Shown piece by piece: positions 27,243 through 32,502 of a stretch of DNA of 40,000 bases. The stretch lies in contig NZ_CP050831.1 of the NCBI RefSeq assembly GCF_012113595.1, positions 4,173,504 through 4,213,503 on the forward strand, written 5' to 3'. Numbering within the stretch: position 1 is the first letter of the stretch; the number at the start of each line of letters is the position of its first letter. The position numbers and the translations under genes were made by a program. Below the pieces are notes generated by a model. The model was not told where the DNA came from, did not search any database, and worked only from the letters and a program-made list of their open reading frames with translations. Source of the DNA: Bacteroides faecium (GTDB lineage Bacteria > Bacteroidota > Bacteroidia > Bacteroidales > Bacteroidaceae).

Positions 27243-27713
27243 TTAATATTCTATCTTGTCTTCTTTGGCCGCCCAGGCTTTGAAGGCAGTAAGGGCTTCA
27301 TTGTGTAGTAAGATTTCAGAGGGGAGTTTTCTGTTTTCAGGTTTAAGTTCCAGTTCGTCATAAATAAAAGAGTCATCAAAACCGATATCTTTGGCATCCG
27401 TCTTATTATTGCCATAATACATCTTGTCCAGTCGTGCCCAATAGATAGCACCCAGACACATCGGACAAGGCTCGCAGGAAGTATATATTTCATATCCGCT
27501 AAGATTGAAAGTTCCGAGCTTCGCAGCCGCGGCACGTATGGCACTCACTTCAGCGTGAGCAGTAGGGTCGCAAGATGAAGTAACGCGGTTCACACCCGTT
27601 GCAACTATTTCCCCCTCTTTCGTAGCAATCACAGCGCCGAAAGGGCCACCACCATTTTCAATGTTCTCCTTAGAAAGCTCGATTGCTTTCCGCATTAATT
27701 CTTCTTTTGTCAT
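27243..27713 (-). CDS. CMP/dCMP-type zinc deaminase (guanine deaminase / nucleoside deaminase-like)
   Basis: 156-aa ORF. The zinc ligands are HAEVSAI and CEPCPMCLGAIYWARL. Its size and layout resemble small GuaD-type deaminases. Confidence 0.85.
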   Translation of the reverse strand: MTKEELMRKAIELSKENIENGGGPFGAVIATKEGEIVATGVNRVTSSCDPTAHAEVSAIRAAAAKLGTFNLSGYEIYTSCEPCPMCLGAIYWARLDKMYYGNNKTDAKDIGFDDSFIYDELELKPENRKLPSEILLHNEALTAFKAWAAKEDKIEY

Positions 27714-27718
27714 AGCAC

Positions 27719-27749
27719 AAAAAATATATTGTTAGTTTTATTCTAATCT
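27719..27749 (-). terminator. 3' arm plus U-run of a terminator hairpin split by the group II intron
   Basis: The minus strand reads AGA-t-TAGAA-t-AAAACTAACAATATA-TTTTTT. It is complementary to 29997..30019, and the U-run ends 5 nt before the deaminase ATG. Confidence 0.6.
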
Positions 27750-27790
27750 GTTATGTAGGTCAGCGAGGTTTCCCCCGCTTTCCCCATTAA

Positions 27791-27824
27791 GAACTGTACG
27801 TGCGAGTTTCCCCGCATACAGCTC
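27791..27824 (-). ncRNA. Group II intron domain V
   Basis: The minus strand reads GAGCUGUAUGCGGGGAAACUCGCACGUACAGUUC. It has a 9-bp lower stem containing the AGC triad, a 2-nt AC bulge, a 5-bp upper stem and a GAAA tetraloop. Confidence 0.9.
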
Positions 27825-27867
27825 CGATAATTCTAAATTTAATTCTCACAAAATTAAATCGGTTCAG

Positions 27868-29394
27868 TCACATTATTAATGCGCTTTCCGATAAAGTATC
27901 CACTTTCGCGGAACGAACCCGCCAACCTTTCTTTTGTCGTCTTTCAAAGTAGGCATCCCAAGTTGTGTCAAATGGATTGGCTTCTTTCTTTATCTTAATG
28001 TACCGTTCAATCGATATGTCTGCCAACTTCAATAATACAAAGGTATACTTTTTATCGCAATCCTCATAATTAAAGCCAAACATCCAGTCTCTTGAACCTA
28101 TCTTAATAAAGTATTTGTCCTTTATCCATTTCCTCGACTTGTTTGTATGCCTTCTATATGACCATCTCTTTAACTGTAAGGTCAAGATGTGGTCTGTCTT
28201 GCTGAACACTCGCTTTGATACTACATGTTTGTAATAGTTTCCCCAGCCTCTTAATACGGGGTTGAGTTCTTCTATCAAAACCTGCTGTGATACCGATTTA
28301 TGACTAAATATAATATCATGCAGCTTCTCTGTGAACCGTTTCTGACTCTTCTTCGATGGCTTGATTAATAATGTTCCGTTGTATTTCCGGATATTAAAGC
28401 CTAAAAAGTCAAAACCGTCTTTCACATGCGTAATCTTCGTCTTCTCCTGCGAGAGTGTCAATCCCCTTTCTGCCAGAAAGTCGTTCAGCAATGCCTTAAT
28501 CTCTTCCAGTGTCTTCCGTTTATCTGCCGTGACACAAAAATCATCGGCATACCTTACAAGATGCACTTTCGGATAGTATAACTTTCCATTCATATACTTT
28601 TTGGCATATCTTTCTTCCAGCAGCTTTTCCATTCCGTCCAGCGTGGTGTTCGCCAAGGTCGGGGAGATGATGCCTCCTTGCGGAGTGCCCTCCACGGTGG
28701 GGATAAGCAATTTATTGAATACCACACCACATTTGAGCCACTTCCTGAGTACGGTCTTGTCAGTTCGTACGTTACCGAGAAGCCATTCATGACTGATGTG
28801 GTCGAAGCATCCCTTGATGTCTCCTTCCAGTATCCACTGTGGGGAACAATCTCTGCTTAACCATCTATGCAGGGCATCTATCGCATCGGCGGTGCCACGG
28901 TACTTACGGAAACCGTAAGAATTGTCGTCTGCCGTTGTTTCTGTTATGGGTTCTAACGCCATCAGATAAAGCGCCTGCATGGCTCTGTCCCTCATGGTCG
29001 GTATTCCCAGCGGACGTTTCTTCCCGTTACTTTTGGCGATATACACTCTTTTCAGCGGACTGGGACGATACCCACGTCTTTTCAAAGAACGAATTGCGTT
29101 CAGCTTATCTGTAGGAGTAGCCCATTTTACTTTATCCACTCCCGATGTTCGTTTTCCTTTATTGGATGTCACTCGTTTTACAGCCAATGCCTTGGCTCCA
29201 AAAGAGATAACCAAGAGATGTTGCAGGGCTTGCACCTTGTTATATCTCTTTTCTTTCTGAGCCTTTGCTATGCGGACTTGCAGCTTTCGTACCTTGCGTT
29301 CGCATCTGTTCCAGTCAATACTGTTCCATCCGCTTGCGTTTCTGGTTGAAGACGCACACTTCGTTTTCACTCCGCCCATTTGCTGTTTCTTCAT
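27868..29394 (-). CDS. Group II intron reverse transcriptase/maturase (no endonuclease domain seen)
   Basis: RT motifs: KRPLGIPTMRDRAMQALYLMALEP, GTPQGGIISPTLAN and YADDFCV. Maturase/X domain: LNPVLRGWGNYYKH. The start is placed at MKKQQMGG (ATG 29394), because the track start at 29529 lies in intron RNA domains. The C-terminus has no CxxC or HNH motifs. Confidence 0.9.
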   Translation of the reverse strand: MKKQQMGGVKTKCASSTRNASGWNSIDWNRCERKVRKLQVRIAKAQKEKRYNKVQALQHLLVISFGAKALAVKRVTSNKGKRTSGVDKVKWATPTDKLNAIRSLKRRGYRPSPLKRVYIAKSNGKKRPLGIPTMRDRAMQALYLMALEPITETTADDNSYGFRKYRGTADAIDALHRWLSRDCSPQWILEGDIKGCFDHISHEWLLGNVRTDKTVLRKWLKCGVVFNKLLIPTVEGTPQGGIISPTLANTTLDGMEKLLEERYAKKYMNGKLYYPKVHLVRYADDFCVTADKRKTLEEIKALLNDFLAERGLTLSQEKTKITHVKDGFDFLGFNIRKYNGTLLIKPSKKSQKRFTEKLHDIIFSHKSVSQQVLIEELNPVLRGWGNYYKHVVSKRVFSKTDHILTLQLKRWSYRRHTNKSRKWIKDKYFIKIGSRDWMFGFNYEDCDKKYTFVLLKLADISIERYIKIKKEANPFDTTWDAYFERRQKKGWRVRSAKVDTLSESALIM

Positions 29395-29993
29395 TACAAA
29401 AGTTCCACATTCCTTTAGCAAAGAATTATCTTGCGGAAGTCTGCCCGTTTTCACGTGAGGTGATGTTTGAACCTCTATCCTCCTCATTACAAGGGGGCAT
29501 TCGCTTTCTCCGCAATCCTTTACCCGCATATCATTCGGCGTTCCTTACGGGCGGCTTACCCGCTCTTAAAAAGAACAGGAGATATACGGGCTTACCAAGT
29601 TTCGTACAAGTAACTCATGACCGACTTAGAACCCGTCTATCCACCGGCAGAACTGCATCCGTGTAGCCCTAAAAAAGAGAGGACTATCCTGTCTGCTTAC
29701 CTTTTGGTCAAGGCTTATTAATATCCGTAAGCCTTTTCTTTGTGACGATGGTGTAACGATTCACATCTGTTGTTCATATCGGTCAGCCTGGCCATCTCAA
29801 TTACAGGATATTTGTATTTGTTGAATGTACCTTACGGTTCATTCTTCCTCATCGAAGATGTCGTTGTCTGAAGGGCTTCGCACCAAGCCGTTACCAGCTA
29901 AGCACGCCTTCGTAGGCTACTATTGACGGAACAATAGGTTCGATTGTAATCTCGAACAATTACTTAGACGACCTCTTGTCGCACCTTCTTTTA

Positions 29994-30001
29994 CAAAGAT
30001 A
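29994..30001 (-). promoter_or_regulatory. -7 promoter box TATCTTTG, 9 nt upstream of the intron 5' end (inferred deaminase promoter)
   Basis: The minus strand reads TATCTTTG. In the reconstructed intron-less site it lies 48 nt upstream of ATG 27713, within the 31-48 nt range seen for the other boxes in this window. Confidence 0.45.
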
Positions 30002-30019
30002 GAAAAAACTAACAATATA
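29997..30019 (-). terminator. 5' arm of the terminator hairpin split by the group II intron
   Basis: The minus strand reads TATATTGTTAGTTTT-TTCTA-TCT, beginning 25 nt after the stop of the 30044..30946 gene. It is complementary to 27725..27749. Confidence 0.6.
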
Positions 30020-30043: not shown

Positions 30044-30946
30044 TTACCAGTACCAGCAAACGCCGAAAGAGAACGGGTAAAGTTCGGGACCTTTATTCTT
30101 CTCAAAGAGTCCATAGGTAGAGTAGCGCATGTAGACCCCTAAATCAGCGTAGCCAGCCTGTGCCAACACATTTATTCCCAACGGGCGTACATTCAGTCCC
30201 TTATCAAAAGTCTTTTTTACGCCATTTATTTTTCCTTTCGATTTCACCCCATGACGGATTTCAGCTTCGGGGCCGACTGCGAAGAATAAAGGACCTCTGC
30301 CGTTAATCCTCGTTTGCCATTCGATAGAAAGCGGAATACGGAAATAGAAATAGCGCAAACGGCTTTTGCTATATTCTGTCGGCTCTTCAGCCATTTTACC
30401 GGGATAGATTTGAGTGATGCCATCTATCTCGCGGAAAGCATAATTACCGTCCAGACGCATGCTGCGGTAGCCCCATCCCAGTCCGATAGTGACACCCCAA
30501 TTATAGGTGGGAGCAAAGGCATGGTAACCCGTGAACAGGTTGCCGCCTATTTCCCAGGAATGTCCTGTATTCAGGCTGGCACGGTTGGAAGGATTGAAAG
30601 AGAAAAAGTCGTTCGACAGTTGCGTGTATCCGATATAGAGCCCGCCGGCATGAGGTTCGAATCGGTCTGTCTTTCTGTTACGTTTGGAGAAAGGAAGTGC
30701 ATCCAGAACAGTACGGCTTTCCATACTCTGACCGTTCAGGTAGACACCTTCGAAGATTTTGGTGTTGGCTATGGTATTTCCGTTCAATGTGCTTTCGTAG
30801 AGCTTTACCTTAATCTTGTCGCCATGTTCCTTGATAACGATTTTCCTTCCGTTGAGGTAGAGGGTCGTGTCTTGGGCGAGATTCTCATTTTGTGCCATAA
30901 TGCCCATTGGAGCGATTATGAATAGTAGTAATAATAACTGTTTCAT
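30044..30946 (-). CDS. Outer-membrane beta-barrel protein (hypothetical), last gene of the ECF sigma operon
   Basis: 300-aa ORF with signal peptide MKQLLLLLFIIAPMGIMAQ. It is rich in alternating aromatic/Gly strands (GLGWGYRSMRLDGNYAF, LAQAGYADLGVYMRYS) and has an aromatic C-terminus, FGVCWYW. Confidence 0.7.
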   Translation of the reverse strand: MKQLLLLLFIIAPMGIMAQNENLAQDTTLYLNGRKIVIKEHGDKIKVKLYESTLNGNTIANTKIFEGVYLNGQSMESRTVLDALPFSKRNRKTDRFEPHAGGLYIGYTQLSNDFFSFNPSNRASLNTGHSWEIGGNLFTGYHAFAPTYNWGVTIGLGWGYRSMRLDGNYAFREIDGITQIYPGKMAEEPTEYSKSRLRYFYFRIPLSIEWQTRINGRGPLFFAVGPEAEIRHGVKSKGKINGVKKTFDKGLNVRPLGINVLAQAGYADLGVYMRYSTYGLFEKNKGPELYPFSFGVCWYW

Positions 30947-30967
30947 AGATATTCTTTTAATGTGTTC

Positions 30968-31417
30968 TTATTCTTTCTTCATAAATAACATAGTAACCAA
31001 ATCGTCGGCATCCAGTTCCCCTTCAATATAAATAAGAGTGGCAGAACCTTTCTTCCCCGTTTTAAAGAGAATGAAGCGGTTAACATCTTCCTTGAGTTGC
31101 GGCAGTTGGTAATAGCCTGACTGGATTTGTCCGCCGGAAACAACTTCTTTTACCTTCTTAGCTTTCTTTTTATCAGCTTCCAGGCAGCGGAGAATGGTAG
31201 GGAGTGCGTCTCCTGCATCCTTGAAGACAAGGCTCTTATAGAGATTCATTTGATAGGCGTCCAACACTTCTTTGGACAATTCTACCATAGTCACTCCTTT
31301 TTGCTTCCCGTATTTCTGAAAGACGGTGGCAATTTGCAGTCCTTGCTGGGCTGCCGCATGAGTGGCAAAAGCAAGCAACAGGATGAGCAGGGCGGTACGA
31401 ATGAATTTATTCATCAT
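30968..31417 (-). CDS. Small secreted protein, DUF4252-like
   Basis: 149-aa ORF with signal peptide ...ATHAAAQ. Its size, its position after a sigma/anti-sigma pair and motifs such as KGVTMVELSKEVL recall DUF4252. The family is from memory. Confidence 0.6.
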   Translation of the reverse strand: MMNKFIRTALLILLLAFATHAAAQQGLQIATVFQKYGKQKGVTMVELSKEVLDAYQMNLYKSLVFKDAGDALPTILRCLEADKKKAKKVKEVVSGGQIQSGYYQLPQLKEDVNRFILFKTGKKGSATLIYIEGELDADDLVTMLFMKKE

Positions 31418-31437
31418 ATTCTTATGCTGTTTTTATA

Positions 31438-31872
31438 TTATTCCTCAAATAAGGTGACGAACACTTCCTCTTCACTGAAACTGACGTCACGGAAAGCGGC
31501 TTTCGCCTGTTCACGGATTAAGGCGGCATCTGTATATTGCTTGCCGTCGATGATGACATAACTGGACGATGCGGGGGACAAGTGGCGATAAACACCCGAT
31601 ACGCCTAATACTAATAATAAGGTGGCCGCCACAGTGCCCAAGCTGTAAGTCAGATAATACCTGAACGTCTTATTCTTTTTCTCAGACCGGGCGGTTGCGG
31701 ATGCCTGTACATATTGGGTATGTTCCGCTTCAAAGAAGGCAAACATCGGACGATACATCTGAAGATGTTCCGGCACGAGCCCTTCGGTAAAGAAACGGCG
31801 CAATTCGCGTTCTTCTTCACAGGTGGTTTCGCCTTCAAAATATTTATTCAATAATTCTTCTATATCTTTCAT
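31438..31872 (-). CDS. Putative anti-sigma factor (single-pass membrane protein)
   Basis: The start is placed at MKDIEELLNKYFEGETTCEEERELRRFF (ATG 31872..31870), which overlaps the sigma stop in an ATGA. A central TM segment is present (YLTYSLGTVAATLLLVLGVSGVY). The track start at 31974 lies inside the sigma gene. Confidence 0.6.
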   Translation of the reverse strand: MKDIEELLNKYFEGETTCEEERELRRFFTEGLVPEHLQMYRPMFAFFEAEHTQYVQASATARSEKKNKTFRYYLTYSLGTVAATLLLVLGVSGVYRHLSPASSSYVIIDGKQYTDAALIREQAKAAFRDVSFSEEEVFVTLFEE

Positions 31873-32390
31873 GCTTCGTTCCTCTTTTTTCGTTCTTGTA
31901 TGGTGAGCAAATAGATTTCTCTCACTTTCTTGCGGGCTCTCGATAGATTGCTTCGGATTGCTTCGGCATTGCATCCGGTAATCTCTGCAATCTCTTCCGT
32001 TTCATATTCCTCTATATCCTTCATGCGAATAATTGTTCGCTGCAATGTGGGTAAAGAGTCGATTATTTCCTGCATTAACTTGAATTCGTCCCTTTCTTCC
32101 AATAACCGTTCCGGAGTACCCGCGGATGCCGCTGCCTGTACCTGCTCGATCGGTACTGTGTCCGGACGCCTGGCCCGCCACATATCCATGCAAAGATGAT
32201 GCGTCATCGTCATGGCTACGGCTTCGATACTCCGGTATTCATCGAGCTTTTGGCGCAGGTTCCATAACTTCAGCATGACCTCTTGCACGGCATCTTCGGC
32301 ATCCGAAGAATCCTCAGTCAATCTTCGGGCATAATTCAACAGTTTGTCGCGAAGAGGTAGAACGGTTATTTTAAATTGCTTGAGTTCCAT
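31869..32390 (-). CDS. ECF-type RNA polymerase sigma-70 family factor
   Basis: 173-aa ORF. Region 2: DAEDAVQEVMLKLW. Region 4 helix-turn-helix: EEIAEITGCNAEAIRSNLSRARKKV. Confidence 0.9.
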   Translation of the reverse strand: MELKQFKITVLPLRDKLLNYARRLTEDSSDAEDAVQEVMLKLWNLRQKLDEYRSIEAVAMTMTHHLCMDMWRARRPDTVPIEQVQAAASAGTPERLLEERDEFKLMQEIIDSLPTLQRTIIRMKDIEEYETEEIAEITGCNAEAIRSNLSRARKKVREIYLLTIQERKKRNEA

Positions 32391-32456
32391 TTACACAGAT
32401 AAGACGGTAGGGAAAGCAAAACGTGACATCAAAAAGAATTTTTTTTGTAGTTGTGT

Positions 32457-32502
32457 AAAAAAAGTGCCGGCTAGTTGCTGTATCATGCAAAATGGCCGGC
32501 AC
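32457..32502 (-). terminator. Rho-independent terminator of the oxidoreductase gene
   Basis: The minus strand reads GTGCCGGC / 23-nt loop / GCCGGCAC followed by TTTTTTT, 38 nt after the stop at 32540. Confidence 0.75.

Follow-up and report, generated by a model that had tools for sequence, protein, structure and literature searches.

The stretch analysed here (the window) comprises 40,000 nucleotides of Bacteroides faecium DNA (RefSeq assembly GCF_012113595.1, contig NZ_CP050831.1, positions 4,173,504 to 4,213,503). On its minus strand, a complete group II intron lies in the 5' untranslated region (UTR) of a gene for a cytidine/deoxycytidylate-type deaminase, a few nucleotides downstream of a predicted sigma-A type -7 promoter box (Table 1). 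The element looks intact and appears recently mobile. Comparison with its relatives suggests that it belongs to a class IIB lineage of Bacteroidales that homes to sigma-A promoters, the -7 box being read by exon-binding site 2 (EBS2) of the intron RNA. We give this reading a probability of roughly 0.8; we hold the comparative pattern with high confidence and its functional interpretation with moderate confidence.

Table 1. Features of the intron, its insertion site and the adjacent genes, in window positions (EBS, exon-binding site; IBS, intron-binding site; IEP, intron-encoded protein)
Feature	Position	Strand	Description and basis
Group II intron, GUGCGAC...CCUACAUAAC	27750..29984	minus	Complete, 2235 nt; Rfam matches and difference from empty sites
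Domain I, conserved 5' part	29793..29938	minus	RF02012 (group-II-D1D4-7), 105 bits, E 3e-21
EBS2, CAAAGA	29737..29742	minus	Complementarity scan; A29743 can extend the pairing to 7 bp
EBS1, 9-nt loop CUCUUUUUU	29671..29679	minus	Loop of hairpin 29665-29685; loop positions 3-9 pair with exon positions -1 to -7
IEP, reverse transcriptase/maturase	27868..29394	minus	508 aa from conserved ATG; public call starts at 29529 (553 aa)
Domain V	27791..27824	minus	RF00029 alignment
Domain VI and intron 3' end	27750..27790	minus	Read from sequence; end set by empty sites
IBS1, AAAGAAG, last 7 nt of 5' exon	29985..29991	minus	7 of 7 positions paired with EBS1 loop; covariation
Predicted sigma-A type -7 box TATCTTTG of the deaminase gene	29994..30001	minus	Last six bases, TCTTTG (29994-29999), are IBS2
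5' arm of 15-bp inverted repeat	30005..30019	minus	Outer stem of hairpin; perfect complementarity and fold
3' arm of inverted repeat	27725..27739	minus	Followed by T6 at 27719-27724; 3' exon begins at 27749
Cytidine/deoxycytidylate-type deaminase gene	27243..27713	minus	Downstream; intron in its 5' UTR; Pfam PF00383
Beta-barrel gene, last of extracytoplasmic function (ECF) sigma cluster	30044..30946	minus	Upstream; Pfam OMP_b-brl_2, just under cut-off; open reading frame list

Intron boundaries and empty sites

The conserved 5' part of domain I matched RF02012 (29938-29793) with 105 bits against a gathering score of 34; the match starts 46 nt from the intron 5' end, and no large insertion is present. 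Domains V and VI matched RF00029 (27826-27753) with 55.6 bits. The exact deaminase protein was looked up and found on seven public contigs, all seven without the intron. These contigs read across the junction as ...GTAAAAGAAG^AGATTAGAA (further rendering, ...TATATTGTTAGTTTTTTCTATCTTTGTAAAAGAAG^AGATTAGAATAAAACTAACAATATATTTTTTGTGCTATG), and the ligated-exon junction of the window locus is ...GUAAAAGAAG^AGAUUAGAA... Since the seven contigs give the intron-less junction, the inserted DNA extends from 29984 down to 27750.

A first-pass annotation of this region had already recognized a group II intron on the minus strand, with the 5' end GTGCGAC at 29984, domain V at 27824-27791 and an unpaired A in domain VI. 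These points were borne out by the Rfam matches, the IEP domains and the empty-site comparison. The 3' end had been put at 27753 and proved to lie 3 nt further, at 27750. The trinucleotide AAC, assigned to the exon in that annotation, does not occur in the seven empty-site contigs (...TATCTTTGTAAAAGAAG^AGATTAGAATAAAAC...), so that the loop sequence derived for the ligated exons carried a 3-nt error; intron-less loci do exist, as does the hairpin that it had predicted. The Rfam models likewise agreed on the intron and domain V. As to the 3' boundary, the RF00029 match ends at 27753 in the window, and in two relatives (L008 and L014) it stops at the same last base as the corrected end. The introns of relatives terminate in ...CAUAAC/U, and a collapsed repeat contig (L012) spans exactly GTGCGAC to CATAAC. 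With the end at 27750, the distance between the 3' splice site and the bulged adenosine of domain VI, the branch point A27756, has the canonical value of 7 nt.

The same 2235-nt unit was found at other sites in public assemblies, and in these introns the ribozyme part preceding the open reading frame (ORF) is about 590 nt long. No empty sites of other members of the clade were found among the fetched loci. The introns of one subclade (L029, L035, L036, L041, L058, L060, L064, L074) start with UUGCGAC or UUACGAC and not with the near-universal 5' G; this boundary was set by alignment and the EBS1 register alone. One of them (L036, at ~4600, Segatella copri F3-48) is probably a decayed copy, since its domain VI and 3' end are disrupted. 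An outward-facing promoter TAATTTTG at the 3' end of the intron (27849-27856) was considered and rejected: the motif occurs only in the window and in L018, and elsewhere this position belongs to a conserved hairpin.

Intron-encoded protein and intron class

The IEP contains the Pfam domains RVT_N, RVT_1 (E 1.5e-43) and GIIM (E 3e-23) with an intact YADD motif, and has no HNH endonuclease domain. The IEPs of relatives align from residue 1 of the 508-aa form. Exact look-ups of this form and of the barrel protein gave no match; the 553-aa gene call was matched. The closest solved relative was 6me0_C (E 9e-169, residues 2-488), an entry which we take to be the T.el4h ribonucleoprotein of a Thermosynechococcus elongatus IIB intron. 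The score was 565 bits with this IIB intron protein versus 117-131 bits with the class IIC reverse transcriptases in PDB. Because the IEP is far closer to the IIB protein, the intron is of IIB type and not IIC. The first-pass annotation had rightly doubted a canonical IIC site: an EBS2 exists, IBS1 comprises 7 nt in the window (5-7 nt in the lineage) and the IEP is IIB-like. Nor does the insertion correspond to that of class IIC, since the window intron lies inside a hairpin and 11 other sites of the lineage have none.

Association of insertion sites with the -7 box

Relatives were collected by IEP scans, which yielded 80 loci in species-representative genomes, 80 in metagenomes and 16 on viral contigs. 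Among 38 independent sites, drawn from genomes, metagenomes and one viral contig, the 5' splice site lies 8-10 nt past a -7 box in almost all; the distance of 9 nt noted earlier for the window falls within this range. The box is a perfect TAnnTTTG at 32 of the 38 sites. Four distinct sites carry one-base variants, namely TATCTTTA (L090 and L099), TATCTTTT (L091) and TACCTTAG (L112, with L119 counted as a variant of the same site), and two sites (L094 and L110) match more poorly. The background frequency of TAnnTTTG is about 5e-4 per position (40 matches in the 80,000 strand positions of the window). Examples of occupied sites are TATCTTTGctaaaaaac^GUGCGAC (L008), TATATTTGtaattgagc^ (L014), TACTTTTGcatggaat^ (L017), TATCTTTGcaaccaaa^UUGCGAC (L041) and TATTTTTGcagagtgaa^ (L088). 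The DNA 5' of the box is unrelated from site to site. As this upstream DNA is unrelated and the empty site of the window locus has the box, the box is part of the host DNA, not of the intron.

The orientation and spacing relative to downstream genes are consistent with 5' UTR positions. A same-strand, ATG-initiated ORF begins 6-63 nt past the 3' splice site at 17 of 28 sites, and three more were recognized by eye. These distances fit the reported lengths of Bacteroides 5' UTRs (mode 23, median 32 nt; PMC7366714). At the empty site 45 nt separate the end of the box from the deaminase ATG, so that a 5' UTR of ~41 nt is predicted, and in the 241-nt spacer of one empty-site locus (L001) the deaminase box is the sole TAnnTTTG. 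A box-associated intron was also present on a contig classed as viral (L178/L179, IMG/VR; TATTTTTGctgtaaaat^GTGCGAC), with an ATG 11 nt past the 3' splice site.

Within the window, TATCTTTG occurs nine times compared with 2.0 expected, and none of 100 shuffles reached nine. The first-pass annotation had reported the box at 30001..29994 together with five copies before start codons, and the enrichment of the motif confirms this. The five further copies (10514, 11377, 23140(-), 23214 and 33564(-)), located 31-47 nt before start codons, are likely promoters. AAG is missing 8-10 nt downstream of all five, a possible reason for their being unoccupied.

In the IEP tree, the box-associated sites fill two adjacent clades, in which each readable intron occupies a different place. 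Relatives with 57-62% IEP identity sit at fixed positions in conserved genes, and by inspection no box is found at the corresponding offset. Two groups of such gene-inserted introns were seen, ...GARGARGCNTGGCT^GTGACATG (L021-L028, L121-L167) and ...GAYACNCCGTGG^GTGCGACATG (L071-L085). They are common to many Bacteroidales genera, and the genes hit may belong to conjugative elements.

Pairing of the intron with the box and the exon

The EBS1 hairpin lies ~305 nt into the intron, and EBS2 was found by the complementarity scan at a constant offset, ~63 nt 5' of EBS1. EBS2 has the final six bases of the box as its pairing partner and changes along with the box: besides TATCTTTG with CAAAGA in the window, we observed TATATTTG with CAAAUG, TA(T/C)TTTTG, i.e. 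TATTTTTG or TACTTTTG, with CAAAAG, TATCTTTA with UAAAGA (L090, L099) and TACCTTAG with CUAAGA (L119). For EBS1, more than 15 different loops were found, each matching its own exon, for instance GUUUUUU with AAAAAAC, GUUUAAU with AUUGAGC, UUUGGU with ACCAAA, UUUACUC with GAGUGAA and GGGAUGU with GCAUUCC.

Both pairings were evaluated in an alignment of 37 exon/intron rows with four segments (EBS1, IBS1, EBS2, IBS2). Paired cells made up 87.3% compared with 68.2% after shuffling, and none of 500 shuffles reached the observed value; the covariation score was 0.544 versus 0.188. Sliding the registers by 1-3 columns left 35-56% of the cells paired. Changes on both sides were present in seven of seven IBS1 pairs and three of six IBS2 pairs. 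RNAalifold with 16 introns assigned EBS1 to the loop of a covarying hairpin; EBS2 fell in an unpaired stretch on the 5' side of a second such hairpin, an arrangement expected for domain I.

Both pairings were thus identified by covariation. The candidate for EBS2 put forward in the first-pass annotation, UACAAA at 29813-29818, sits in a conserved stem of RF02012 and was abandoned in favour of 29737-29742. A second candidate, GUGAA at intron nt ~220, was rejected since the motif is also conserved in relatives at unrelated gene targets. The homologous EBS2 position fits the targets of some gene-inserted relatives (L039), others not clearly. One empty site (L005, ~1269) has G replaced by C at exon position -1 (...AAAGAAC^AGATT), a change that would break the EBS1 pair beside the splice site.

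Copies of the identical intron

The identical IEP, as the 553-aa call, is on record in 27 public-assembly blocks, and 24 contigs were read. They are mostly 2-5 kb long, as is typical of collapsed repeats. The identical 2235-nt intron is present at six or more different boxes, that of the window included; the other sites are TATCTTTGtaatacaag^, TATCTTTGtaataaag^, TAGCTTTGtgacaaag^, TAACTTTGtaaatcaaag^ and TATCTTTGtggaaaag^. All 5' exons end in AAG, and the readable 3' exons start with A (all but L168/L170). The shared flanks imply that the intron needs nCTTTG and 3-4 bases beside the splice site. Of the boxes in the window, only the occupied one conforms to this rule.

Mosaics of flanks were observed round near-identical copies (L014 vs L015, the latter from a complete genome; L095 vs L098; L171 vs the window and L172). 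One 5' exon was joined to different 3' exons, or one 3' exon stood behind different promoters. They arose either by recombination between copies of the intron, which would swap promoters, or as chimeras of assembly.

Proposed mechanism of target recognition

We propose that the intron RNA reads the target DNA through two segments of domain I, where EBS2 would pair with the last six bases of TAnnTTTG and EBS1 with 7 nt spanning the transcription start. Reverse splicing would insert the intron 8-10 nt beyond the box, which corresponds to about +4 to +6 of the transcript, between promoter and start codon and in the same orientation as the gene. EBS2 would be held complementary to the box throughout the lineage, and divergence of EBS1 would retarget introns to other promoters; one intron could use several promoters sharing only 3-4 bases adjacent to the splice site. 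In the window, the promoter struck would be that of the deaminase gene. The promoter core would be left intact and the whole intron would be transcribed. Insertion presumably proceeds by replication-dependent priming, by analogy with other endonuclease-less introns.

The sigma-A box has been reported at -12 to -5 (PMC9723704). Placed in this way, G29994 is -5, the predicted start is ~A29989, and the intron begins after +5. The boxes are probably active promoters with the start ~5 nt past the box. RNA initiated there would carry a 5' exon of 4-6 nt (AGAAG here) without IBS2, and EBS2 would then act on DNA and not in the splicing of those RNAs. The first-pass annotation had anticipated a promoter-initiated RNA with almost no 5' exon, and the published box position leads to the same expectation. 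It had also suggested that perhaps only read-through RNA of the ECF operon can splice. This is unlikely as a general rule, because relatives hold the same promoter offset behind unrelated upstream DNA.

The hairpin and alternative explanations

The ligated exons of the window locus form a hairpin of -27.7 kcal/mol (z = -7.6) with a stem of 15 + 5 + 5 bp. The perfect 15-nt inverted repeat described in the first-pass annotation was confirmed by complementarity; the intron itself, said to sit in the loop, lies in the innermost helix, where it interrupts the 3' strand after two bases. The hairpin begins 24 nt past the stop of the barrel gene and has a T6 tail, features that make a terminator function plausible. 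Its AT-rich stem explains why a consensus terminator scan (at least 3 G-C pairs, loop of 3-8) leaves it uncalled. The possibility that the arm is a repeated element was dropped, as the window contains no further copies beyond chance. The strong hairpin flanking the intron, with the T-run after it, had led to its being regarded as the key to the insertion. In such a case the intron would recognize or depend on a terminator-like hairpin as a IIC-like variant, and splicing would re-form the terminator. This we consider very improbable. The hairpin is older than the intron because the empty site already has it. When 45 nt of each flank were joined and folded, 11 other sites of the lineage gave z from -0.85 to +0.98, compared with -6.1 for the window in the same test, which by itself largely refutes such a dependence and rules out a junction hairpin as a general target feature. 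Moreover, five other sites of the identical intron have different flanks, the EBS2 and the 7-nt IBS1 are unlike those of IIC, the IEP scores far higher with the IIB protein than with the IIC enzymes, and the simple terminator scan leaves the hairpin uncalled. As none of the 11 other sites forms one, the hairpin is an incidental bystander, and the deaminase promoter happens to lie within it.

A more serious alternative is ordinary sequence-specific homing, in which the TTTG of IBS2 would be an accident of the lineage, the boxes common AT-rich words, and promoter activity irrelevant. The EBS2 pairing alone would account for nnTTTG of the motif, and no -33 element is evident. However, the TA that does not pair with EBS2 is present at the right spacing at 36 of the 38 sites, the orientation agrees with that of the downstream ORF wherever such an ORF is recognized, and the spacing to the ATG is compatible with real 5' UTRs. 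In addition, EBS2 is locked on the box, compensatory changes included, while EBS1 varies freely, and sister clades with other EBS sequences sit inside genes. We therefore regard ordinary homing as unlikely and prefer the homing of the lineage to promoters. Several points weigh against this preference. The transcription start, splicing and mobility at all these loci are deduced from sequence. No clear -33 element lies upstream of the boxes: a TTG is found 18 nt upstream of the window box, and across 32 sites there is no clear enrichment of TTTG at -33. This element is weak in published transcriptome work too (PMC7366714), and it could not serve as independent proof of promoter status. At 9 of 28 sites no obvious ORF follows within 200 nt, and three introns (L020, L074, L018) pair poorly with their present exon. 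The box was found by pattern, which conditions the IBS2 columns of the alignment, the EBS2 columns being chosen by position only. The neighbor-joining tree fits one box-associated clade or a grade alike. Finally, the TA is conserved yet unpaired with EBS2; either the IEP reads it, or only insertions at working promoters were kept.

It is equally improbable, to the same degree as a dependence on the hairpin, that the intron is a switch serving the host, with expression of the deaminase and fimbrillin-like genes depending on splicing or on read-through from the ECF cluster. The position in the 5' UTR and the separation of the hairpin arms by 2.2 kb would suit such a role. However, the intron is absent from seven of seven public contigs that encode the identical deaminase, and the five of them that reach upstream also lack the ECF cluster. 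The window intron is identical to copies at unrelated promoters, which argues for a recent selfish insertion rather than a fixed regulator.

Comparison with known group II introns

The target specificities named for bacterial group II introns are homing sites, terminator motifs and attC sites (PMC4424553, 2015 review), and a IIB1 family is found at start or stop codons (PMC12584367, 2025). Group II introns bring no promoter with them (PMC4424553; PMC12584367) and depend on host promoters upstream (PMC12584367). We found no report of promoter-box targeting by group II introns, or of this Bacteroidales lineage, in open-access papers and preprints. We lean slightly towards regarding the lineage as a case of a fourth target specificity, in which a IIB intron would read the -7 box by EBS2, insert at +4 to +6 and capture host promoters with a 5' exon of 4-6 nt. 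If so, EBS2 would work only on DNA, and splicing would proceed on a minimal IBS1. In a bolder form, the ribonucleoprotein could use the non-template strand exposed in the transcription bubble, IBS2 and IBS1 together spanning ~-10 to +5.

The lineage resembles class IIC introns (e.g., B.h.I1) and the IIC-attC group in lacking an endonuclease domain and in using a generic, abundant, non-coding regulatory motif that offers many sites outside ORFs. Class IIC introns recognize a DNA hairpin and a 3-4-nt IBS1, have no EBS2 and insert just past the hairpin (PMC4424553; PMC12584367). In contrast, the motif here is a linear -7 box read by EBS2, IBS1 spans 5-7 nt, the RNA and the protein are IIB-like, and the intron is placed where a transcript starts, not where it ends. 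With the IIB1 start/stop-codon family it shares the link of a IIB lineage to the context of gene boundaries (PMC12584367). Members of that family have 300-700 nt inserted close to the 5' end of domain I and occupy sites in or at a start or stop codon; the window intron has no large domain I insertion, and in the introns described here the distance to the box is fixed (8-10 nt) and that to the ATG varies (6-63 nt or more).

Similarity to the T. elongatus IIB introns extends over IEP residues 2-488 and includes the IIB-type recognition by EBS1 and EBS2. Those introns reportedly spread to many genomic sites through EBS divergence, and to our knowledge no common promoter-box target is known for them, whereas here EBS2 is held constant on a regulatory motif. 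Like RmInt1 and the other endonuclease-less IIB-like introns of classes D, E and F, the present ones target mainly by EBS1/EBS2 pairing. RmInt1-type introns have unique home sites, often in insertion sequences, and we know of no promoter element linked to them. A further likeness is that the EBS2-IBS2 pairing of IIE/IIF introns is dispensable for self-splicing although conserved, presumably for mobility (PMC3753933).

If the proposed reading is true, the lineage would have found a new solution that guarantees transcription and, in each genome, opens up thousands of near-identical landing sites that are non-coding. The lineage would also represent a natural separation of EBS2 (DNA targeting) from EBS1 (targeting and splicing), and the ability of a group II intron to splice when its 5' exon is only 4-6 nt long would call for an explanation. 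Among gut Bacteroidales, such introns could change expression at many genes, swap promoters by recombination between copies, and break metagenome assemblies at promoters. They would be natural candidates for promoter-proximal targetron tools in Bacteroides.

Neighbourhood of the deaminase gene in empty-site contigs

All five empty-site contigs that reach upstream (L001, L002, L003, L005, L006) lack the cluster of ECF-sigma, anti-sigma, DUF6108 and beta-barrel genes. In these contigs, 241 nt separate a GFO/IDH/MocA gene from the deaminase ATG, and only ~125 nt of the 3' end of the barrel gene are left. The regions compared were ~30125-32497 (minus) of the window and 3760-3935 of L001; the empty-site arrangement looks like a deletion variant.

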